Source: a virus (taxonomy: Duplodnaviria; Heunggongvirae; Uroviricota; Caudoviricetes). From it: a DNA stretch of 47,428 nucleotides. Within the stretch, counting starts at the first letter, position 1; every line of letters starts with the position of its first letter. Under the pieces are notes generated by a model. That model made no database searches. It was given only the letters and a program-made list of their open reading frames with translations, and was not told where the DNA came from. The DNA is taken from IMG/VR virus record IMGVR_UViG_2574180238_000003. One strand, 5' to 3'. The translations under genes and the position numbers were made by a program. Of the stretch, positions 10,950 to 32,456 are shown piece by piece.

Positions 10950-11159
10950 AAACGGTTTGCGGGGAAAGAAGAGTTAAGTAGAATTGCTGCGGGTGCTTGA
11001 GGCTGTTTGCCTCGGGCATGCCGCCGTAAGGCAGACAGAGAAAAGCCCCAGTTAACATTACGCGTCTTGCAGGACGCTTAACATTAATCTGAGGCCCAAT
11101 CTATGCTTCACAAACGTAGGTTAGCCTCTTACGTGCCGAAAGGCAAGGAGAAGCAGGCT

Positions 11160-11315
11160 ATGAAGCAGCAAAAGGCGATGTTAATCGCCCTGATCGTCAT
11201 CTGTTTAACCGTCATAGTGACGGCACTGGTAACGAGGAAAGACCTCTGCGAGGTACGAATCCGAACCGGCCAGACGGAGGTTGCTGTCTTCGTAGACTAC
11301 GAATCTGAGAAGTAA
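11160..11315 (+). CDS. hokD: Hok/Gef-family type I toxin (HokD/RelF-like)
   Basis: MKQQKAMLIALIVICLTVIVTALVTRKDLCEVRIRTGQTEVAVF... matches the Hok family signature and recalled RelF/HokD; GC hairpin ggcgagggagaaatccctcgcc (11325-11346) just downstream, typical of hok mRNA 3' ends. Confidence 0.85.
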   Translation: MKQQKAMLIALIVICLTVIVTALVTRKDLCEVRIRTGQTEVAVFVDYESEK

Positions 11316-13187: not shown

Positions 13188-13718
13188 ATGATATATCCGG
13201 AAATTACAGGCAAAAGCGGCGAACATTTACGCCTGAACACGCTGGAAGCAGTCTGGATCCAGGGGAAATTACGGATGTGGGGGCGGTGGTCGTATATCGG
13301 TGGGGGTAAATCCGGAAATATGTTTAACCGGTTACTGGTTTCGAAAAAACTGACGAAAACCGCAGTTAATGAGGTTTTACGCAGAATGAAGAAATCCGGG
13401 CTGGATAAACCGGAACTTGAGGCATTTTTTCGGGATATGACAAGAGGAAAGCAGAAGAGCTGGTTGTCACATTGTACAGACACAGAGGCGTTGATTATTG
13501 ATCGCGTTATCAGTGAGGTGCTTGGGGAATATCCCGGGCTAATCAATGTTCTCCGGCAAAGGTACGAAGGACGGGGAATGAGTAAGAGAAAAATGGCAGA
13601 ATGTTTAAATCGTACTCACCCGGAATGGTGCTTCAGCACATGTGAGAAACGTATTGCAGGTTGGTTAGCCGTGGCTGAACACATGCTTTATGTACCTATG
13701 CACGATTCATTTCGATAA
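13188..13718 (+). CDS. Late-gene antiterminator Q
   Basis: 176-aa ORF directly upstream of the late region (methylase, tRNAs, lysis genes), downstream of rusA; Cys/His-containing C-terminus; assigned mainly by position and size. Confidence 0.65.
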   Translation: MIYPEITGKSGEHLRLNTLEAVWIQGKLRMWGRWSYIGGGKSGNMFNRLLVSKKLTKTAVNEVLRRMKKSGLDKPELEAFFRDMTRGKQKSWLSHCTDTEALIIDRVISEVLGEYPGLINVLRQRYEGRGMSKRKMAECLNRTHPEWCFSTCEKRIAGWLAVAEHMLYVPMHDSFR

Positions 13719-15406: not shown

Positions 15407-15482
15407 GGCCCTTTAGCTCAGTGGTGAGAGCGAGCGACTCATAATCGCCAGGTCGCTGGTTCAAATCCAGCAAGGGCCACCA
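15407..15482 (+). tRNA. tRNA with CAU anticodon (Ile2/lysidine-type, ileZ-like; Met not excluded)
   Basis: 76-nt cloverleaf: acceptor GGCCCTT/AAGGGCC, D-arm GCTC..GAGC, anticodon loop CTCATAA, T-loop GGTTCAAATCC, 3' ACCA encoded; close to recalled E. coli ileX. Confidence 0.85.
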
Positions 15483-15491
15483 TATCACATA

Positions 15492-15568
15492 CCGCCATTA
15501 GCTCATCGGGATAGAGCGCCAGCCTTCGAAGCTGGCTGCGCGGGGTTCGAGTCCTCGATGGCGGTCCA
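15492..15568 (+). tRNA. tRNA-Arg (anticodon UCG)
   Basis: 77-nt cloverleaf: acceptor CCGCCAT/ATGGCGG, anticodon stem CCAGC/GCTGG with loop CTTCGAA, T-arm CGGGG-TTCGAGT-CCTCG, 3' TCCA. Confidence 0.8.
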
Positions 15569-15846
15569 TTATCTGCATTATGCGTTGTTGGTTCTGATGA
15601 GTGAATCATTGTCTTTTGAGCAACAGGCTATCATATAAGATAGCCTCAGACTTCCTTGTTTATTCTCGCCGGATGCTTCGTAGATATTTGCAGGCATCTG
15701 TATGCAGGGGTATTATTGCGGCATATATCATCCGGAAAAATAAAAACTACATGCTGATCCGGAGATGATAGTTACAAGTCCTCCCGGATCCCGCATATTT
15801 ACTATATTTTATAGATAATTGTTCTTGTTAATATGGAGATGGATAA

Positions 15847-16275
15847 ATGTATTGCCGTGCTGTACCGGTTCTTGTTTTGATATTAGCCAGTCTGACAACT
15901 GGCTGCACAAAAGATGTATCGACAAATAATCATGATGCTTCTCTGTATCACTCAGATAAATTAATAAAGTCGCAAAATTTGAGCTCATCGGAACGTACCC
16001 CTGATGCCAGTGAAGAAATCCGGCAGTATGCCATTCAGGTCAGGAAAGCCATAGAAGAACAGTTAAAGGATGCGAGTAAGTATTCAGGAAAAGAGTGTTC
16101 ACTGAGAATGTATATGGCCCCGAATGGTCTTCTGCTACAGGTTAAAAGAGAAAGCGGTGATCCCGATTTATGTCGTGAAGCGATGAATGCAGTAAAGAAT
16201 GCTGATATACCATCACCACCGTCTTCAGGAGTATATAAAGCATTTAGAAATGGCGTGCTGGATTTTAAACTCTGA
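15847..16275 (+). CDS. Lipoprotein with TolA C-terminal domain (domain III)-like region
   Basis: Signal peptide plus lipobox LTTGC; C-terminal ~80 aa (IQVRKAIEEQLKDASKYSGKECSLRMYMAPNGLLLQVKRESGDPDLCREAMNAVKNADIPSPPSSGVYKAFRNGVLDFKL) align to recalled E. coli TolA domain III including the conserved Cys pair; AT-rich upstream flank. Confidence 0.7.
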   Translation: MYCRAVPVLVLILASLTTGCTKDVSTNNHDASLYHSDKLIKSQNLSSSERTPDASEEIRQYAIQVRKAIEEQLKDASKYSGKECSLRMYMAPNGLLLQVKRESGDPDLCREAMNAVKNADIPSPPSSGVYKAFRNGVLDFKL

Positions 16276-16334
16276 CAGGGGGAGAAGATTTTCTCCTGTC
16301 CTGATGATTTTGGGGCGCTGGAAAGATATTGTGC

Positions 16335-16590
16335 TGTGAAGTGTTAAATCCCTCACAATTCAGTAAGTTGACAGTTGCCTGTCAGACTGAGCATTTGTTA
16401 AAAAAATTTCGCATGGTGAATCCCCCTGTGCGGAGGGGCGACTGGTGAACGGTATGATCTCTTTGATGATCGTAAGCGAGAATACGCGGGTTTGGTGTCA
16501 CCGGGCTGAACTCACCGGGAGGCACCCGGCACCATGCTCATGGTGATACAGAAATGCGGCTTCAGCCCCTCTCCGGAGGGGCTTTCTTAT
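16335..16590 (+). repeat. Structured repeat unit 1 of 4 (candidate sRNA)
   Basis: Conserved blocks ttaaatccctcacaattcag, gcatggtgaatccccctgtgcggaggggc, caccgggaggcacccggcaccatgc, and terminator hairpin gcccctctccggaggggc with T-run. Confidence 0.6.
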
Positions 16591-16746
16591 GGACAAAAAA
16601 AGCCCGCGCTGGGAGACGCGGGCGGCAAGGAATAAACAATAAAACGTGAAGTAATACTTCAACTGGCGAATAATACCCGACAGTAATCACTCTGCGCAAT
16701 AGCGTGGCCTTTTTCGAATTGCGGGCTGTAGTCTCCCTTCTGCCGG

Positions 16747-16900
16747 GTGTCCTGGTTGCAGATTTCTTCATGGGGTAGGGTTCGGCAGTTAAAGCAGCGA
16801 TGGCGCTGGGGCGTCGTGCAACTGGCGTTGAGCTGGATACCGGGCGTTTTGAACAGACTGCGCAGGAAATCAGGGATGTATTTAGCGGGAGCGGTTTGCA
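16747..16900 (+). pseudogene. 3' fragment of a DNA methyltransferase gene (paralogous to 15216-15366), in-frame stop
   Basis: Nucleotide similarity to the 3' end of the intact methylase gene; translates as VLVADFFMG*GSAVKAAMALGRRATGVELDTGRFEQ... Confidence 0.7.
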
Positions 16901-16970
16901 GAAGTAATCTCCCAAAATGCCATTTTTGGAATATACTGGTATTAAGTCTTTTTGCTCAGGTTAATTCAAA

Positions 16971-17696
16971 ATGGATGTTGCCTGCTCTGTGGTCCTGATT
17001 CGCTATCCGATAGATATTTTTCTTGAAAAAGAAAAAGTTTCACTCGATGCCGGAAGTGTTATGCTTGTTGCCAGAAATATAAGAGGGCTTTTCTGTGCTT
17101 ATGCCGACAGAGTGAAAATGGCAGATATAAGTAACAGCGTCGTCAATCAGTATCTGGAAAGGGAGTGTGAACTGACGGAGTATACACCGACAAAAATGCC
17201 TCTTTATTTGATGTCTGATATTTACAATACGGAACTGGCGGAGGCTTTAATAACCCAGCATAGTGAATCCAGTGATACTTTGAAGGATTTCTCTGTTATA
17301 ACCGCATTTTCATGTATCTCCTTATTTGCAACAGACAGACGTCTGCCATTATTTTTGTCCGGTGCTGTAAATAATATCAGCTGTAAAGTAAGGGCTATAA
17401 TTCAGACCGACATATCGGCAGGCTGGATGCTTGGTGTGATTGCATTACAATTGCATATGAGCGAAAGCTTGTTGAAGCGAAAACTTAAGGATGAAGGTTA
17501 TAGCTTTAGTCGGTTGTTGCTGGAGGAGCGAATGCGTGTTGCTGTTAATCTTGTATGTTTCCAGCGAGAGTGTGGACAAGCGATAGCGGAAAAATGTGGT
17601 TACTCAAGTAAGTCCTACTTCATTTCTGTATTTCACCAGTATTATGGTGCACCACCTGAGAGCTATGCATATTTGCAGAAAGCAGACGTTATCTGA
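16971..17696 (+). CDS. AraC-family transcriptional regulator
   Basis: 241-aa ORF; C-terminal AraC-type dual HTH (GWMLGVIALQLHMSESLLKRKLKDEGYSFSRLLLEERMRVAVNLV...KCGYSSKSYFISVFHQYYGAPPESY); AT-rich gene in the accessory block. Confidence 0.8.
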   Translation: MDVACSVVLIRYPIDIFLEKEKVSLDAGSVMLVARNIRGLFCAYADRVKMADISNSVVNQYLERECELTEYTPTKMPLYLMSDIYNTELAEALITQHSESSDTLKDFSVITAFSCISLFATDRRLPLFLSGAVNNISCKVRAIIQTDISAGWMLGVIALQLHMSESLLKRKLKDEGYSFSRLLLEERMRVAVNLVCFQRECGQAIAEKCGYSSKSYFISVFHQYYGAPPESYAYLQKADVI

Positions 17697-17785
17697 TGTT
17701 TTTTCATCAGGCATATATTGATTGACTGTATTAGATATAGTCTGAATGTGTTCAGCATAAAAAGTTATAATCATTTGGTGTTTGC

Positions 17786-18064
17786 GTGAATATTGATGAG
17801 AAAATCAGATGTAGCCAACTGTTACAGCGTATTGAAGCCGTCAATGTGGAACGAACAAAGGTCTTCAGTCGTCTGACAGTTTTATTTTGTACCCCTGATC
17901 GACGTTCAGGTCAGGAGATGGTTCTTCTGGATGTAGATGCACTTCGGAACGTCTGTGAGGAGTTCACCGCGGCTAATTCGGAGTTACTGAGTCTTGTTCA
18001 GGAGTACAACAGAATTGCAGGTAGTAACGGTTTTGATGAAATCAAAATTATATCCCGTGGATAA
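17786..18064 (+). CDS. Hypothetical protein
   Basis: 92-aa ORF (GTG start, or ATG 17796) downstream of the AraC gene. Confidence 0.35.
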   Translation: MNIDEKIRCSQLLQRIEAVNVERTKVFSRLTVLFCTPDRRSGQEMVLLDVDALRNVCEEFTAANSELLSLVQEYNRIAGSNGFDEIKIISRG

Positions 18065-18304
18065 AACATATCCTGTATATTTATGTTGTTACATACAGGC
18101 GCTTTTAGTATCTGCCGCACGGCAGTTGTACTTCAGAATAAGATGCTTTTGTGACTGGTGGTGTTGTATCTGGGGTTAGCCAGTAGGCAGGTTCAGAGAG
18201 TCCGGTGGTAATTATGTGTATGCAGTGGTTGTTGCTGTACCGTGGGCAAGTTCTGGAACTGGCTTCGTCCATTGTAGATGATTGTTAGCTGGATATCAGT
18301 TACC

Positions 18305-18548
18305 TCATGGAAATGTTAAATGACTCACAATTCGGTTGATGGGCTATTGTCTGATCGATGGAAGTCTTGTAAAAACGAGCCAGCATAGTGAATCCCCCTG
18401 TGCGGAGGGGCGTCTGACATGGTCTCCATAGCGATGGTCACAATACGCAGATTCAGTAGTCAGGCTGAATCTACCGGGAGGCACCCGGCACTATGCTGCT
18501 TATGGTGTATACATAGCGATCGGCCCCTCTCCGGAGGGGCTTTTTTTG
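18305..18548 (+). repeat. Structured repeat unit 2 of 4
   Basis: Same block order as unit 1; long-range helix gcatagtg (18383-18390) / cactatgc (18489-18496) carries a compensatory base-pair change relative to unit 1; terminator gcccctctccggaggggc plus T7. Confidence 0.6.
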
Positions 18549-18564
18549 TGCGGGAAAAGGCTGT

Positions 18565-18806
18565 GTTGTTAAGTGTTAAATTCCTCACAGTTCAGATGGT
18601 TGATGCTTGCCTGTCTGAGGGGGCGTTGTTAAAAAAGTTCTGCATGGTGAATCCCCCTGAGCGGAGGGGCATATCAGCGCAGGTGTTTCTACTCTATCCT
18701 TTCTGTGCGGGTTCAGGTGCTGATACTGAACTCATCGGGAGGCACCCGGCATCATGCATATGGTTAACAGACACGTAGCGAAGCCCCTCTCCGGAGGGGC
18801 TTTTTT
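18565..18806 (+). repeat. Structured repeat unit 3 of 4
   Basis: Same blocks; helix gcatggtg / catcatgc (G-U wobble); terminator gcccctctccggaggggc plus T6. Confidence 0.6.
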
Positions 18807-18824
18807 ATGCAGGGAAAAGGCTGT

Positions 18825-19062
18825 GTTGTGAAATGTTAAATTCCTCACAATTCATGAGGTTGATGATTGTCTGATTGATGAGGAGTTTGTTAAAAAAAAC
18901 GGGCATGGTGAATCCCCCTGTGCGGAGGGGTGATATCGTATCATTTCCTGTGTGGCCGACTGATATCACGGACATTTGTTCACCGGGAGGCACCCGGCAC
19001 CATGCAGTATACAGAGATTAGGCATACATCCAGGCTCCTCATCGCAGGAGCCTTTTTACATG
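18825..19062 (+). repeat. Structured repeat unit 4 of 4
   Basis: Same blocks; helix gcatggtg / caccatgc; different terminator sequence (ggctcctcatcgcaggagcc plus T5) in the same position. Confidence 0.6.
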
Positions 19063-19291
19063 TAAAAAAAAAAACGCTCCTGGGAAGAGCGGTTGGCAAG
19101 GAAGCAAGGAATAAATAACAAAACGTGAAGTAATTTATTCAGCACCCTAATAATACCTTAGAGTAATCACATTGCGCAACTGTAAGGGCGTATTTCTTTT
19201 TTGCGGGCTGTTTTTCTGTGTGACTTTTGTGTTTCCGGAGGTCAGCCCGTGCCTTCTCTGACTCAGAACATTATCCCGGCCGGGAGGATTC

Positions 19292-21256
19292 ATGGCATTT
19301 AAACACTACGATGTGGTCAGGGCGGCATCGCCGTCAGACCTTGCTGAACGACTGACACAAAAACTGAAGGAGGGCTGGCAGCCATTTGGCAGTCCGGTGG
19401 CCATCACGCCTTATACCCTGATGCAGGCCATTGCGGCGGAAGGTGATGTCACCACACCAGTGGCGGTGACCGGTAATGAGGGTAAGGCGGTGGCTGTCAG
19501 TGCCACCAGCGACCCGGAGTATTACTTTGTTGTGGTTCTGGCAGGGCAGTCAAATGGCATGTCGTATGGTGAAGGTCTTCCGCTGCCGGAGACATATGAC
19601 CGTCCGGACCCGCGCATTAAGCAGCTGGCGCGCCGCAGTACGGTGACACCGGGCGGTGCAGCATGCAAATATAACGACATCATTCCGGCGGACCATTGTC
19701 TGCATGATGTGCAGGACATGAGCCGCCTTAACCATCCGAAAGCGGACCTGTCAAAGGGGCAGTACGGTACCGTGGGGCAGGGGCTGCATATCGCCAAAAA
19801 ACTGCTGCCGTTTATACCGGCGAATGCGGGTATTCTGCTGGTTCCGTGCTGTCGTGGGGGTTCAGCGTTCACCACCGGAGCTGATGGCACATACAGTGAC
19901 GCTGGCGGTGCCTCGGAGAATTCAGCGCGCTGGGGTGTGGACAAGCCGCTGTATAAGGACCTTATCGGTCGAACAAAAGCAGCACTGAAGAAGAACCCGA
20001 AAAATGTGCTGTTTGCCGTGGTGTGGATGCAGGGGGAATTTGATTTTGACGGCACGCCCGGAAATCACGCAGCACAGTTTGGTGCGCTGGTTGATAAATT
20101 CCGTGCAGACCTGGCGGATATGGCAGGCCAGTGCGTCAGTGGCTCTGCTGGCGGTGTTCCCTGGATATGCGGGGACACGACGTATTTCTGGAAGCAGAAG
20201 AACGAATCCACGTACCAGACGGTGTACGGCAGCTATAAAAACAAAACGGAAAAGAATATCCATTTCGTACCGTTCATGACGGATGAGAACGGGGTGAATG
20301 TGCCGACGAACAAACCGGAAGAAGACCCGGACATTCCGGGTATCGGGTATTACGGTTCGAAATGGCGTGACAGCTCAGCCCCCTGGACGTCACAGGACAG
20401 GGCGAGCCATTTCAGCACCTGGGCACGCCGGGGGATTATTTCCGACCGTCTGGCAACGGCGATTCTGGTGCACGCCGGGAGAACCGCTGAATTCATTACC
20501 GGAAAACAGCCTGATATGGTGAAGCCCACCGTACCTTCCGGTGAAGGTCCGGAGAGAGAGGCGGAAGCCCCGGTCAGTAACCGAACCCTGATGAGTCTGC
20601 TGGCATCCGGCGAAGACCTGGCATCACAGGGCTGGCGCTATTATCACAAACCGGCGGGCGGGGACAGTGTTAACAAAAACATTGCTGAAGCGGTGGTCAG
20701 TGATGCGGGGGCTACGGGAGGTAAGGCTCTGCAACTGAACAAACCGGAAAACCACATCTGGTTTCTGGAGCATGATGCAGCCGGACAGGGTGCGGAGTTA
20801 CTGAAGAAGGGCGGACGTGTGAGCGTACGGTTTAAGTTGCCGGGTTCACTGGTGCCGAATCAGTTTGCCCTGGGCATTTACTGGCAGTTGTCGTCCCTGC
20901 CGGAGGGGGTGACGCTGTCAGGAGAAGGTAACGATATGCTGATGTCTTTCTTCCTGCAGACGGATACGACGAACCTGAACGCGATGCATCACAGGAAGCC
21001 GAATGCGAAGCTGGATACATTCGGGGTCTTTGATAACGGATGGCACACGCTGGCTTTTGAGTTTGCCGGAAACAACAGCATTCAGGTGACACCAGTACTG
21101 GATGAGAAACGGGGAGCGGCGTTCACACTGGTGAAGTCACCGGCATCGGGGGCGGCGGACAAACTGCAACTGACCGATATATCAAAATCGGCGACGTATA
21201 CGCTGCTGATTGACAGCATTGCGGTGGAAGTGAACAGCACAGACACTGCGGCATGA
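19292..21256 (+). CDS. NanS-p-type sialate O-acetylesterase (SGNH/SASA hydrolase)
   Basis: 654-aa ORF; GQSN catalytic motif (VVVLAGQSNGMSYGEG); location between Q/tRNAs and the lysis cassette as in Stx-type lambdoid phages. Confidence 0.75.
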   Translation: MAFKHYDVVRAASPSDLAERLTQKLKEGWQPFGSPVAITPYTLMQAIAAEGDVTTPVAVTGNEGKAVAVSATSDPEYYFVVVLAGQSNGMSYGEGLPLPETYDRPDPRIKQLARRSTVTPGGAACKYNDIIPADHCLHDVQDMSRLNHPKADLSKGQYGTVGQGLHIAKKLLPFIPANAGILLVPCCRGGSAFTTGADGTYSDAGGASENSARWGVDKPLYKDLIGRTKAALKKNPKNVLFAVVWMQGEFDFDGTPGNHAAQFGALVDKFRADLADMAGQCVSGSAGGVPWICGDTTYFWKQKNESTYQTVYGSYKNKTEKNIHFVPFMTDENGVNVPTNKPEEDPDIPGIGYYGSKWRDSSAPWTSQDRASHFSTWARRGIISDRLATAILVHAGRTAEFITGKQPDMVKPTVPSGEGPEREAEAPVSNRTLMSLLASGEDLASQGWRYYHKPAGGDSVNKNIAEAVVSDAGATGGKALQLNKPENHIWFLEHDAAGQGAELLKKGGRVSVRFKLPGSLVPNQFALGIYWQLSSLPEGVTLSGEGNDMLMSFFLQTDTTNLNAMHHRKPNAKLDTFGVFDNGWHTLAFEFAGNNSIQVTPVLDEKRGAAFTLVKSPASGAADKLQLTDISKSATYTLLIDSIAVEVNSTDTAA

Positions 21257-21625
21257 TAAAAAAGCCGCCAGTTACCGGAATGGACTGGCGGGGGAGCTCT
21301 ATGGACACTCCAGAGAAACATTTTTGTACATGAATATTTTCAAATGAAAAATATTCTTATTGTCAATATGTGTCAGCGGTATTTGCGGGGCAAAAAAAAT
21401 CCACCAGTAAGCACAGGGAGAAATGCGTCATGCTTCTGGTGGAAATAGTACGGCTGTGAGGTTTTATTGTTATGCATGCCATAATTTTTCTACACAAAAG
21501 CGATTCTTAATGTCAACACGTTTGACAGGGAATTGTTGGGCACTCAGAGTAACTACACGAGGCTGTCAGTGGAGCACTGGCGGCCTTTTTCATGTTGTGA
21601 GCTTCCGGATTGCGGGAGACGGGGT

Positions 21626-21841
21626 ATGTACCAGATGGAAAAAATCACAACAGGTGTGTCATACACCACGTCAGCGGTGGGAACGGGCTACTGGTTCCTG
21701 CAGTTGCTGGACAGGGTTTCCCCGTCTCAGTGGGCGGCAATAGGCGTGCTGGGGAGTCTGCTGTTTGGTCTGCTGACGTACCTGACGAACCTGTATTTCA
21801 AAATCAGAGAGGACCGGCGTAAGGCGGCACGGGGAGAGTAA
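21626..21841 (+). CDS. Holin (class II, phage 21 S-like pinholin) with dual-start motif
   Basis: [71 protein letters not shown] closely matches recalled S21; two Met starts three codons apart. Confidence 0.85.
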
Positions 21842-21845
21842 GCTG

Positions 21846-22379
21846 ATGAGCAGGAAACTCCGCTATGGTTTATCGGCTGCCGTTCTGGCGCTGATTGCCG
21901 CAGGTGCTTCTGCGCCTGAAATCCTCGACCAGTTTCTGGATGAAAAGGAAGGCAACCACACCACGGCATACCGTGATGGTGCGGGTATCTGGACCATCTG
22001 CCGAGGTGCCATCATGGTGGATGGCAAGCCTGTTATTCCTGGCATGAAGCTGTCGAAGGGGAAATGCGACCGGGTTAACGCCATTGAGCGTGATAAGGCG
22101 CTGGCATGGGTGGCGAAAAACATCAAAGTGCCACTGACTGAACCCCAGAAAGCGGGTATTGCGTCATTCTGTCCTTACAACATTGGCCCGGGTAAGTGTT
22201 TCCCGTCGACGTTTTATAAGCGGCTTAATGCCGGTGATCGTAAAGGTGCCTGTGAGTCGATTCGCTGGTGGATTAAGGACGGTGGGCGTGATTGCCGCAC
22301 ACGTTCAAATAACTGCTACGGACAGGTTATTCGTCGTGACCAGGAAAGCGCATTAGCCTGTTGGGGGATAGATCAGTGA
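21846..22379 (+). CDS. SAR endolysin (T4-lysozyme family, GH24)
   Basis: 177-aa ORF; N-terminal signal-anchor-release segment ([15 protein letters not shown]) followed by an E..D..T lysozyme core ([20 protein letters not shown]). Confidence 0.85.
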
Positions 22380-22813
22380 GAAGAGTAGCCGCGATTATCT
22401 CCGCTCTGGTTATTTGCATCATCGTCTGCCTGTCATGGGCTGTTAATCATTACCGTGATAACGCCATTACCTATAAAGAACAGCGCGATAAAGCCAGGTA
22501 CATCATCGCTGACATGCAGAAGCGTCAACGTGATGTAGCAGAACTTGACGCCAGATACACAAAGGAGCTTGCTGATGCTAACGCGACTATCGAAAGTCTC
22601 CGTGCTGATGTTTCTGCTGGGCGTAAGCGCCTGCAAGTCGCCGCCACCTGTGCAAAGTCAACGACCGGAGCCAGCAGCATGGGCGATGGAGAAAGCCCAG
22701 GACTTACAGCAGATGCTGAACTCAATTATTACCGTCTCCGAAGTGGAATCGACAAGATAACCGCGCAGGTCAACTACCTGCAGGAGTACATCAGGACGCA
22801 GTGCTTAAAATAA
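22376..22813 (+). CDS. Rz (i-spanin)
   Basis: [34 protein letters not shown]... matches recalled lambda Rz; GTG start overlaps the endolysin stop. Confidence 0.85.
22575..22760 (+). CDS. Rz1 (o-spanin lipoprotein), embedded in Rz in the +1 frame
   Basis: Lipobox LGVSAC followed by a proline-rich segment ([13 protein letters not shown]), fully nested in Rz. Confidence 0.75.
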
Positions 22814-23229: not shown

Positions 23230-23850
23230 ATGAAAGATCAAGATGTTAGGTTCGCGGTGCATCATAAGCTTTTGAAAGAATCGCATTTAGATCCAGACTG
23301 CCTTGTGGTCGATGAATTTTCCATATCCCTTGGCGCCAGTAGAGCAGACATTGCTGTAATAAATGGTGTTATACACGGGTACGAGCTCAAAAGTGAATAT
23401 GACTCTTTGGAGCGTTTGCCTCTTCAAATCAAGCATTATTCTTCTGTAATGGACAAGGTTACTCTTGTCGTAGCTGAGAAACATCTTGAGGGAGCATTAA
23501 AGTTAATCCCAGGTTGGTGGGGCGTTAAAACGGTTTCTGTTGGGTCAAAAGGCGCCATTCTTATAAAGCACATGCGTGGAGAAAAGCTTAATCGAAACCA
23601 TGACACATTGATGCTCGCTCAATTGCTTTGGAAAGATGAATGTATCGACGTACTTGAACGATGGGGCTATTCCAAAGGAATCAAAAGCAAGCCCCGATTT
23701 GAGTTATGGAATATTATTGCGGAAAATATTCCAATAGCGAATCTCAGGCTTGAAGTCAGAACAGCCTTAAAGAAACGCGTAGGCTGGAAAGTTAAGGCTT
23801 GGCAGGCTGAGTCTGCGCCAACCAATAAAGCTGTCTCACGACTAACGTAA
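23230..23850 (+). CDS. Hypothetical protein with PD-(D/E)xK-like nuclease motif
   Basis: 206-aa ORF with a strong Shine-Dalgarno (GGAGGGAGTAAGGAGAAG before the ATG); putative active-site elements RADIAVINGVIHGYELKSE (D...ExK); AT-rich; convergent with and overlapping the next gene. Confidence 0.6.
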   Translation: MKDQDVRFAVHHKLLKESHLDPDCLVVDEFSISLGASRADIAVINGVIHGYELKSEYDSLERLPLQIKHYSSVMDKVTLVVAEKHLEGALKLIPGWWGVKTVSVGSKGAILIKHMRGEKLNRNHDTLMLAQLLWKDECIDVLERWGYSKGIKSKPRFELWNIIAENIPIANLRLEVRTALKKRVGWKVKAWQAESAPTNKAVSRLT

Positions 23851-24859
23851 TATGGTGCGTATGTGCAACTTTACGCCATTCTTTAGAGCCGCCAGATTTG
23901 TTAGCGCCTAATGATCTTTGGTAAATGTAATCATCCCCCCAACTAAATTTGGAGCCAAAGACTTGATACTCTGGCGAACTAACAAGGGTAGTACATAAGT
24001 TTTTAGTTTGGCCCCATCCATTTCCTTTAACTGCGGTACCTTTTACAAAGATCCATGAGGTATCGTTCGAATATCTCACTGAGACATACTGAGACATGAA
24101 GCGTGGGTCTACGCTCGTAATGGTAGAGCTAGCGGTGGGATAATCACTAAAACTTGGCGTTCTTCCATTGCTAAAATTCTGTACTACGTACATCCAAAGA
24201 TCGTATTCATGGCGCGGAATATGATGAACTTGATGTTGCGGTATCCCTGCCTGTGATGCCGGGTATGCGGTTGAAGATAAAATCAAGTTTCTCCACGGAG
24301 CTTGGCCTGATAATGTGTTGACCATGCTTAATGCTTGTTGTTTTAAACTATCAGTTGCGTTTTGAATATCTCCAAAATCAATGATTACATCAATTAAACT
24401 AGGATGAATATTTAAGTGGTTAACCAGACTTGTGAATTGGTGCCATGTCTGGGGGGTGATAGATATAGCGAGCCCATTGATTAAGTTGCGTTGAACAGCA
24501 TGTATATAGTTTGTTGAATATGTGGGAGAAACAACAGGGATAATTTCCTTACCATTTACTCTAGCATCTTGGATACACATATCTAGAGGATGATGGCGGC
24601 TCGAACCATGTTTATCTAAATATTTAACATCCAGCAAAACAGGACGATTGGCTTTCCAGGATGCCGCAAGGTTAATACCGAAGTCAGATAAGTAAGAACT
24701 CAAACTCTTCTTGTAGCATTCGTTTTCATAATCCCAGTCTATGTCTGGAATGGTAATGATCGGAGTAAAACCAGAGAGCGTAGTTTGATCTAAAAGCATC
24801 AGAGATTCATATTCAGCAGGCTTCCATTTCAGCTGTGGATAATATTGATGTTGACTCAT
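23792..24859 (-). CDS. Hypothetical protein (355 aa), partner of the PD-(D/E)xK-like gene
   Basis: Minus-strand ORF with an AAGGAG Shine-Dalgarno upstream; its 3' end overlaps the plus-strand gene by 59 bp; no recognisable motifs; AT-rich promoter region at 24860-25060. Confidence 0.6.
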   Translation of the reverse strand: MSQHQYYPQLKWKPAEYESLMLLDQTTLSGFTPIITIPDIDWDYENECYKKSLSSYLSDFGINLAASWKANRPVLLDVKYLDKHGSSRHHPLDMCIQDARVNGKEIIPVVSPTYSTNYIHAVQRNLINGLAISITPQTWHQFTSLVNHLNIHPSLIDVIIDFGDIQNATDSLKQQALSMVNTLSGQAPWRNLILSSTAYPASQAGIPQHQVHHIPRHEYDLWMYVVQNFSNGRTPSFSDYPTASSTITSVDPRFMSQYVSVRYSNDTSWIFVKGTAVKGNGWGQTKNLCTTLVSSPEYQVFGSKFSWGDDYIYQRSLGANKSGGSKEWRKVAHTHHITLVVRQLYWLAQTQPAKP

Positions 24860-31427: not shown

Positions 31428-32456
31428 ATGGGATTGTTTACGACCCGCCAGTTACTCGGTTATACCGAACAAAAAGTGAAATTTCGTGCGCTGTTTCTGG
31501 AACTGTTTTTCCACCGTACGGTGAATTTCCACACCGAAGAGGTGATGCTGGACAAAATTACCGGAAAAACGCCGGTGGCAGCCTATGTCTCCCCGGTTGT
31601 TGAAGGAAAAGTGCTGCGTCATCGTGGTGGTGAAACCCGCGTGTTACGTCCGGGCTACGTCAAGCCGAAACACGAATTTAATTACCAGCAGGCGGTGGAG
31701 CGCCTTCCCGGTGAAGATCCGGCGCAGCTGAACGACCCGGCCTACCGTCGTCTGCGTATCATCACCGATAACCTCAAACAGGAAGAGCACGCCATTGTCC
31801 AGGTGGAAGAAATGCAGGCGGTGAATGCCGTACTGTATGGCAAATACACCATGGAAGGAGACCAGTTCGAGAAAATTGAGGTTGATTTTGGCAGATCGAC
31901 GAAGAATAACATCATACAGGGTAGCGGTAAGGAGTGGTCAAAACAGGACCGTGACACGTTCGACCCGACATATGATATCGACCTTTTCTGTGATCAGGCC
32001 AGCGGTCTTGTGAATATTGCCATCATGGACGGTACCGTCTGGCGTCTGCTGAATGGCTTTAAGCTGTTCCGCGAAAAACTGGATACCCGTCGCGGCTCAA
32101 ATTCACAACTCGAAACGGCAGTGAAAGACCTGGGGTCGGTGGTATCTTTCAAGGGGTATTACGGCGATCTGGCCATTGTGGTGGCGAAAACATCTTATGT
32201 GGCAGAGGACGGTACCGAAAAACGTTATCTTCCAGATGGCACGCTGGTCCTGGGAAATACGGCTGCTGAGGGCATCCGTTGCTATGGTGCCATTCAGGAT
32301 GCGCAGGCGTTGTCCGAAGGTGTGGTGGCCTCTTCCCGTTATCCGAAACACTGGATGACCGTGGGCGATCCGGCCCGTGAATTCACCATGACGCAGTCCG
32401 CGCCGCTGATGGTGCTGCCGGATCCGGATGAGTTTGTGGTGGTACAGGTGAAATAA
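31428..32456 (+). CDS. E: Major capsid protein E
   Basis: 342 aa; collinear with recalled lambda E (PGYVKPKHE, QVEEMQAV, KLDTRRGSNS, TGDPAREFTM). Confidence 0.9.
   Translation: MGLFTTRQLLGYTEQKVKFRALFLELFFHRTVNFHTEEVMLDKITGKTPVAAYVSPVVEGKVLRHRGGETRVLRPGYVKPKHEFNYQQAVERLPGEDPAQLNDPAYRRLRIITDNLKQEEHAIVQVEEMQAVNAVLYGKYTMEGDQFEKIEVDFGRSTKNNIIQGSGKEWSKQDRDTFDPTYDIDLFCDQASGLVNIAIMDGTVWRLLNGFKLFREKLDTRRGSNSQLETAVKDLGSVVSFKGYYGDLAIVVAKTSYVAEDGTEKRYLPDGTLVLGNTAAEGIRCYGAIQDAQALSEGVVASSRYPKHWMTVGDPAREFTMTQSAPLMVLPDPDEFVVVQVK

Follow-up and report, generated by a model that had tools for sequence, protein, structure and literature searches.

A prophage NanS-p sialate O-acetylesterase gene downstream of predicted tandem STnc100 small RNA genes

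Among described systems, the locus studied here is closest to those of the Stx phages 933W and phi24B, whose NanS-p proteins are Z1466/L0105 and vb_24B_21/gp84, respectively. Activity as a Neu5,9Ac2 esterase has been shown for Z1466 and for every prophage allele tested from EDL933 and O104:H4 (PMC8065619). In phi24B, gp84 decorates the capsid: hexamers of its DUF1737 domain plug the hexon centres, using a loop that contains Tyr42, while the enzymatic portion is apparently cleaved from the capsid (bioRxiv 10.64898/2026.04.10.717836). The chromosomal esterase NanS (YjhS), in contrast, is a member of the sialic-acid regulon and not a phage gene, and it has neither the DUF1737 nor the lectin-like domain of the phage enzymes. 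A second element recurs at these loci. The published norm is a single STnc100/PasD small RNA (sRNA) gene upstream of nanS-p; the paper describing the Pas sRNAs reports no tandem copies, and the pasD copies are at least 74 kb apart. The STnc100 RNA encoded downstream of stx2B is the Hfq-binding EcOnc27/sRNA103 (PMC12711010, PMC12370729), and both EcOnc27/sRNA103 and PasD are expressed and bound by Hfq (PMC12711010, PMC8550237).

We analyzed a locus of this kind in a 47,428-nt stretch of viral DNA (IMG/VR record IMGVR_UViG_2574180238_000003), hereafter the window, to which all positions refer. Our overall reading, to which we assign a probability of about 0.8, is that the gene encodes a late, Q-dependent NanS-p esterase that is released by lysis and is probably tethered to the phage head, and that the repeats upstream of it are separate genes for trans-acting sRNAs.

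The nanS-p gene and its protein

The nanS-p reading frame runs on the + strand from an ATG at 19292 to a stop codon reached at 21256 (19292-21256, stop codon included) and encodes 654 aa. Direct reading of the sequence places a Shine-Dalgarno sequence, GGGAGG (19282-19287, +), 4 nt 5' of the ATG. A first-pass annotation had called an esterase with a GQSN motif here; its coordinates were exact, and the motif corresponds to residues 85-88 of the protein. The domain search that it had suggested, for DUF1737 plus SASA, was positive. In Pfam, the 654-aa protein matched DUF1737 (PF08410) over aa 3-50 at 9e-16 and SASA (PF03629) over aa 80-276 at 6e-11, as well as DUF6645 over aa 504-617 at 7e-41. 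A sequence search of the PDB matched aa 71-392 to the NanS/YjhS structure 3PT5 at 2e-115, the SGNH core being homologous along its whole length, and aa 464-649 to the NanS-p C-terminal domain 6YP6 at 8e-62; the same search found no chain for DUF1737. From these matches and an alignment to the 933W protein we delimited three domains, all on the + strand: DUF1737, aa 1-53 (19292-19450; Pfam, 933W alignment); an SGNH/SASA esterase domain, aa 77-397 (19520-20482; 3PT5 alignment); and a lectin-like jelly-roll C-terminal domain containing DUF6645, aa 464-654 (20681-21253; Pfam, 6YP6).

In the 3PT5 alignment, where both GQSN and SHF line up, Ser87 of the GQSN motif and His373 of a RASH motif pair with the equivalent Ser and His of NanS. 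Catalytic roles for those two residues in NanS were reportedly assigned by Rangarajan in 2011. Block IV of NanS-p proteins takes the form RASH or RSSH (PMC10462455). At positions Y510, Y515, Y540 and F611 of the proposed sugar-binding site (PMC10462455), the 933W alignment places F, Y, F and F in the protein studied here, all four being aromatic.

The three-domain architecture and the GQSN and RASH blocks are common to this protein and those of 933W and phi24B. Identity to 933W NanS-p is about 97% in the esterase core but 76% overall: in its second half, DUF1737 is of another variant (V1, lacking 3 aa at the Tyr42 loop), neither linker is the same, and the C-terminal domains are only about 57% identical. 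A 99.8% identical protein in RefSeq (WP_032223194.1) is already annotated as 'SASA family carbohydrate esterase', and positions 18200-21400 of the window are 99.7% identical to a prophage in E. coli HY220605. These matches support the prediction that the gene product is a prophage NanS-p sialate O-acetylesterase, a member of a well-characterised family from phages of pathogenic E. coli, and that its existing annotation is correct. The activity proposed in the first-pass annotation, release of Neu5Ac from mucin, needs correction: an enzyme of this kind strips O-acetyl groups (Neu5,9Ac2 to Neu5Ac) and does not itself free sialic acid.

The STnc100 units upstream of nanS-p

Immediately upstream of nanS-p and on the same strand lie three units, each of about 260 nt and arranged head to tail, and a fourth copy is found 2 kb further upstream. 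All four match the Rfam family STnc100 (RF02076; cut-off 47 bits), and the matches span model positions 1-206. Unit 1 (18312-18571; predicted sRNA ~18383-18547) scored 119.5 bits, with the Rfam match placed at 18354-18549; unit 2 (18572-18831; predicted sRNA ~18642-18806) scored 134.9 bits, placed at 18614-18812; and unit 3 (18832-19069; predicted sRNA ~18903-19057) scored 141.3 bits, placed at 18874-19063. The distal unit, or copy 0 (16340-16603; predicted sRNA ~16411-16592), was found by Rfam (172.4 bits, placed at 16382-16594) and by nhmmer, and is additional to the three repeats noticed in the first-pass annotation. A relaxed Rfam search of positions 15500-22000 returned nothing besides STnc100 and tRNAs. 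The array repeats were recovered by a repeat search, by Rfam and by an nhmmer profile, but Tandem Repeats Finder reported no repeats in the array region because the unit copies are only 56-63% identical overall. At this identity they are diverged paralogues and not fresh duplicates. A 119-aa ORF at 18419-18778 and other ORFs inside the repeats were rejected as spurious, because the same strand matches an Rfam sRNA model along its full length.

The conservation of the units is uneven. Identity is 66-96% across promoter and 5' hairpin, middle hairpin and terminator, whereas the segments between the hairpins, at 15-54%, are not conserved. PasD1 and PasD2 of EPEC E2348/69 and EcOnc27 have the same arrangement of a 5' hairpin, a middle hairpin and a terminator, and the same position just 5' of a sialate esterase gene (10.64898/2026.05.13.724894; PMC12711010). 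Unlike those loci, the window has three diverged tandem paralogues with a fourth 2 kb away, and the inter-hairpin segments, including the region of the PasD seed, are not conserved. The 5' end of PasD2 mapped by RNA-seq in EPEC (NC_011601:741157) aligns to GCATGGTGAATCC in every unit, and upstream of this site the four copies share the invariant boxes TTGyCT-N17/18-T(T/A)AAAA. Every unit closes with a GC-rich hairpin followed by a T-run; the terminators of the array lie at 18522-18541 (unit 1, followed by T7), 18786-18799 (unit 2) and 19032-19053 (unit 3), all on the + strand. Each unit therefore appears to be a complete sRNA gene encoding an RNA of about 155-165 nt, its promoter part being deduced from the boxes and the PasD2 alignment.

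To place the array among related loci, we surveyed 114 non-duplicate IMG/VR nanS-p loci. One STnc100 unit was present in 85 of the 114, mostly 150-250 nt before the ATG; two units were present in six, and none was detectable in 20. Two loci (L003 and L006) carry four tandem units, the window having three in tandem plus the distal copy, and close relatives of the window nanS-p allele have 1, 3 or 4 tandem units. Some alleles of the array also occur alone: in four loci (L057, L058, L069 and L121) the sole copy ahead of nanS-p is the unit 2 allele, and in another (L007) it is the unit 3 allele. The 3' half of unit 3 is of the 933W/EcOnc27 type, with 86-88% identity to the 933W copy in the 3' part. 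The junction between units 1 and 2 was found in 86 of 5,426 complete E. coli genomes (~1.6%), and the genomes with tandem STnc100 arrays are mostly those of human and cattle isolates that produce Shiga toxin. That an sRNA gene is paired with the esterase gene is thus already known, and the tandem array is a rare minor variant of it that varies in copy number.

The first-pass annotation had suggested that the three tandem structured repeats could regulate the esterase gene. The repeats themselves are clearly there, with STnc100 E-values of 1e-25 to 3e-31, but they do not look like a dedicated cis-regulatory leader. Such a leader, an attenuator or riboswitch-like element tuning nanS-p expression, would fit the location of the repeats directly 5' of the gene on the same strand, the spacing of 150-250 nt seen in most loci, and the fact that three serial intrinsic terminators must lower read-through from upstream promoters. 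Yet each unit has promoter-like boxes of its own and starts where the mapped PasD2 transcript starts, members of the family are discrete Hfq-bound sRNAs with targets in trans (PMC8550237, PMC12711010), and STnc100 was the only Rfam family matched apart from tRNAs. STnc100 is moreover found away from esterases, copy 0 preceding the AraC-type gene, and a unit is undetectable in 20 of the 114 nanS-p loci. We therefore regard a cis-acting leader as quite unlikely. On the sequence evidence, the repeats are best read as paralogous genes of a known Hfq-binding family, relatives of STnc100, EcOnc27 and PasD, that would insulate nanS-p as its neighbours. The only evident effect of the array on nanS-p in cis is that its three terminators should block transcription that is not antiterminated.

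Further candidate sRNAs lie on the minus strand. One, of about 80 nt (19064-19147, -), is convergent and situated between unit 3 and nanS-p; it ends in a terminator followed by T10, its sequence resembles the EPEC RIL-seq candidate E2348C_1409.E2348C_1408.IGR, and a conserved TTGCGC-N18-TATTAT lies upstream of it. It has a twin at ~16596-16668 (-). Another, a PasC/PasA-like candidate (21259-21341, -; folding z-score -2.3), is convergent with nanS-p, its terminator abutting the stop codon. It is about the size of PasC/PasA (EcOnc51/52) and, like PasC in E2348/69, is convergent and located between the esterase and holin genes. With PasC it also has in common a TTGACA -35 box and the terminator, whereas the rest of the RNA is too diverged to be aligned with confidence; the alignment to PasA was unconvincing. 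Since the likeness to PasC is limited to promoter box, terminator and position, we list 21259-21341 as a candidate only.

Prophage context and late expression

The host prophage is a lambda-like prophage of E. coli without stx. A Q-type late antiterminator gene (13188-13718; DUF1133 at 1e-110 and Phage_antitermQ at 2e-8 in Pfam) is followed by genes for a 352-aa DNA methylase and tRNAs (tRNA-Ile(CAU)/Arg, 15407-15568), an ORF with a TolA C-terminal domain, STnc100 copy 0, a methylase gene fragment, an AraC-type regulator (16971-17696), the three STnc100 units, nanS-p, the lysis genes and then the head genes, all of these genes from Q to capsid being on the + strand. The lysis cassette (21626-22813) comprises a P21-type holin (21626-21841), a lysozyme or endolysin (21846-22379), Rz (22376-22813) and, embedded in it, Rz1 (22545-22760), assigned from Pfam, the RefSeq annotation of a near-identical locus and the ORFs. 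Past it come lambda-type terminase, portal, protease, decoration protein and capsid genes, with the major capsid protein encoded at 31428-32456. The end of nanS-p is 370 nt from the holin, in agreement with the first-pass description of an esterase just upstream of the lysis genes. In 933W and phi24B, too, nanS-p lies between the Q region and the holin with an STnc100 gene upstream, and the Q-stx-nanS-p-S layout of Stx phages is kept in the window except that other morons occupy the stx position: the TolA-like ORF, the AraC-type regulator and the extra sRNA copies.

We looked for promoters from which nanS-p might be transcribed. A sigma-70 consensus scan gave hits no more numerous than in shuffled sequence, none of them a + strand site either 5' of nanS-p or within the STnc100 units, and the region after Q, inspected by eye, offered only weak late-promoter candidates. 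Direct reading of the translation gave no sign of a signal peptide, the N-terminus not being hydrophobic. With neither a signal peptide nor a recognisable promoter of its own, nanS-p is probably transcribed with the late operon, and its product probably leaves the cell at lysis. With three or four terminators in series ahead of it, nanS-p should also depend on antitermination. Mitomycin C raises nanS-p expression by 1-2.4 log in other strains (PMC10462455). Gene order and this published induction together make late co-expression of nanS-p with the lysis genes plausible.

The mechanism we propose is as follows. The Q-type antiterminator would let RNA polymerase pass the four STnc100 terminators, so that nanS-p joins the late operon transcript, and NanS-p would exit the cell at phage lysis. 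The released enzyme would strip 7-, 8- and 9-O-acetyl groups from free or mucin-bound sialic acids, which could then be used by sialidases and by sibling lysogens. The lectin-like jelly-roll domain presumably keeps the enzyme on glycans, and DUF1737, in a version that matches the lambda-like capsid, would tether it to the phage head.

DUF1737 and the phage head

The capsid in the phi24B study is that of a T=9 podovirus, whereas the head of the window prophage is lambda-like. Among relatives, aa 1-30 of DUF1737 are near-invariant, while aa 31-52 are variable and here constitute variant V1, 'PFGSPVAITPYTLMQAIAAEG'. Of the first 31 residues, 29 are identical to those of 933W, whose numbering fits gp84, but the half that forms the anchor loop has diverged: the three missing residues fall at the 'GYG' tooth, and a tyrosine, Y41, is present in a different context. 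The cleavage motifs SISSP and SSP are replaced by DVTTP and TVP in the 933W alignment.

We then asked whether the variable half follows the type of head, using 49 non-duplicate loci whose sequence extends as far as the head genes, a sample that is not phylogenetically independent. V1 occurred with lambda-like heads A (18 loci) and two divergent A-like heads, with HK97-like heads C (7) and with one divergent B-like head; V2 with head type B (13); and V3 with 933W-type heads D (7) and once with C. The adjusted mutual information (AMI) between aa 31-52 and head type was 0.71 over the 49 loci, against -0.01 in the case of the esterase core and 0.12 in that of both linker 2 and the C-terminal domain. 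When the loci were reduced to 25 distinct mosaics, the AMI of aa 31-52 was 0.61, a value reached in none of 2000 permutations, and that of the esterase core, linker 2 and C-terminal domain was about 0. Two loci (L120 and L095) are exceptions, and V1 serves two head types. Plain backbone linkage as the cause of the association is weakened by the finding that, within head types A, B and C, the Q genes upstream are of shuffled types.

These results have to be weighed against the classical view, in which NanS-p is a purely soluble metabolic enzyme that is released by lysis, or leaks from cells in which the prophage is induced spontaneously, and only feeds lysogens, DUF1737 being a leftover with no role at the capsid in this siphovirus-type prophage. 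That view has experiments behind it, on growth with Neu5,9Ac2 and on the removal of O-acetyl groups from mucin glycans (PMC8065619, PMC8319020); in addition, the anchor loop in the window is unlike that of phi24B, and the lambda-like head here has a gpD-type decoration protein of its own. It is difficult to see, however, why a functionless remnant would stay intact, with its variable half co-segregating with the head while the rest of the gene recombines. A solely soluble role is, in our estimation, possible but doubtful. A different proposal has the enzyme act for the phage on bacterial and not host glycans, stripping O-acetyl groups from O-antigen or capsule and so aiding adsorption or release. 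This possibility was raised in PMC8065619, and capsid display would put the enzyme on the particle. Since the catalytic and lectin domains of the phi24B protein appear to be cut off the capsid after release, and the substrates tested are sialic acids, we find this improbable. Based on the covariation and the phi24B preprint, DUF1737 is probably a head-matched capsid anchor in the window prophage.

NanS-p esterases and the adjoining STnc100/PasD gene have been described before; the leads for specialists are the matching to the head and the sRNA arrays. A broader picture, which we put forward tentatively at slightly less than even odds, is that NanS-p would be a modular enzyme displayed on the capsid across many unrelated E. 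coli phage head types, phi24B being one case, and that the STnc100 arrays would be built by unequal recombination. If so, the latter half of DUF1737 would serve as an adaptor specific to the head and remain with the head genes, the esterase and lectin modules being freely swapped, and the virion of the window's lambda-like prophage would bear the esterase. The conserved STnc100 modules would be the sites of unequal recombination, which would generate variable arrays of diverged sRNAs with differing seed regions in front of nanS-p. With DUF1737 matched to the head type, what one cryo-EM study observed would hold for lambda-like and HK97-like prophages as well.

Accessory genes from the early region to the terminase genes

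The early region contains a hok/sok-type toxin-antitoxin module at 10991-11315 (+). Its sok component was matched by Rfam at 10991-11165, and hokD is annotated at this module in a near-identical genome. Two phage tRNA genes lie at 15407-15568 (+), as found with ARAGORN and in RefSeq. The first was called tRNA-Met(CAU) by ARAGORN, but the identical gene is annotated as tRNA-Ile in RefSeq, a call that corresponds to the ileZ type of the Stx phage 933W; the second is tRNA-Arg(UCG). Whereas 933W carries a third tRNA gene, argO, the window lacks it. A short way 3' of the tRNA genes, a 142-aa ORF (15847-16275, +) encodes a TolA C-terminal domain (6e-23), in a position approximating that of stx in Stx phages. 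This ORF may be a moron acting in superinfection exclusion or as a decoy of a colicin or phage receptor. An overlapping convergent gene pair occupies 23230-24859, between the lysis and terminase genes. Its plus-strand gene encodes a sce7726-family protein (PADLOC 'cll', 2e-31) and its minus-strand gene a Pfam Beta_protein (PADLOC PD-Lambda-2_C, 4e-32, also 'beta'); the pair is probably an anti-phage defence moron.

Convergent small-RNA candidates and a hairpin before the holin gene

Two almost identical convergent elements on the minus strand, at 16596-16668 and 19064-19147, lie directly past copies 0 and 3, respectively, of the STnc100 small-RNA gene. Each carries a TTGCGC-N18-TATTAT box as well as a terminator with a T-run behind it, and both resemble the EPEC RIL-seq sRNA candidate E2348C_1409.E2348C_1408.IGR. 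Another candidate, PasC/PasA-like, is convergent with nanS-p at 21259-21341 (-). Its terminator adjoins the nanS-p stop codon, as is the case for PasC in E2348/69; the RNA body has no confident alignment with PasC or PasA. Further downstream, a strong terminator-like hairpin (21559-21587, +; 13 pairs, then TTTTTC) is situated about 35 nt 5' of the holin start, within the presumed late transcript.

Mosaicism of nanS-p and the distal STnc100 copy

We compared the window gene (19292-21256) with IMG/VR nanS-p loci from the series L003-L145. NanS-p genes proved highly mosaic: variants of the linker, the esterase and the C-terminus are combined in no fewer than 25 different ways among 49 loci. By sequence identity, the esterase cores of these loci form three main classes, which cut across all head types. 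Behind the distal fourth STnc100 copy, copy 0 (16382-16594, Rfam span), come a fragment of a DNA-methylase gene (~16743-16907) and the gene for a regulator of the AraC family (16971-17696; HTH_18/HTH_AraC); together they make up a block at 16340-17696. Since this block lies within the array region in some genomes (matches H33, H34 and H36), its position suggests that cassettes are shuffled via recombination at STnc100 units.
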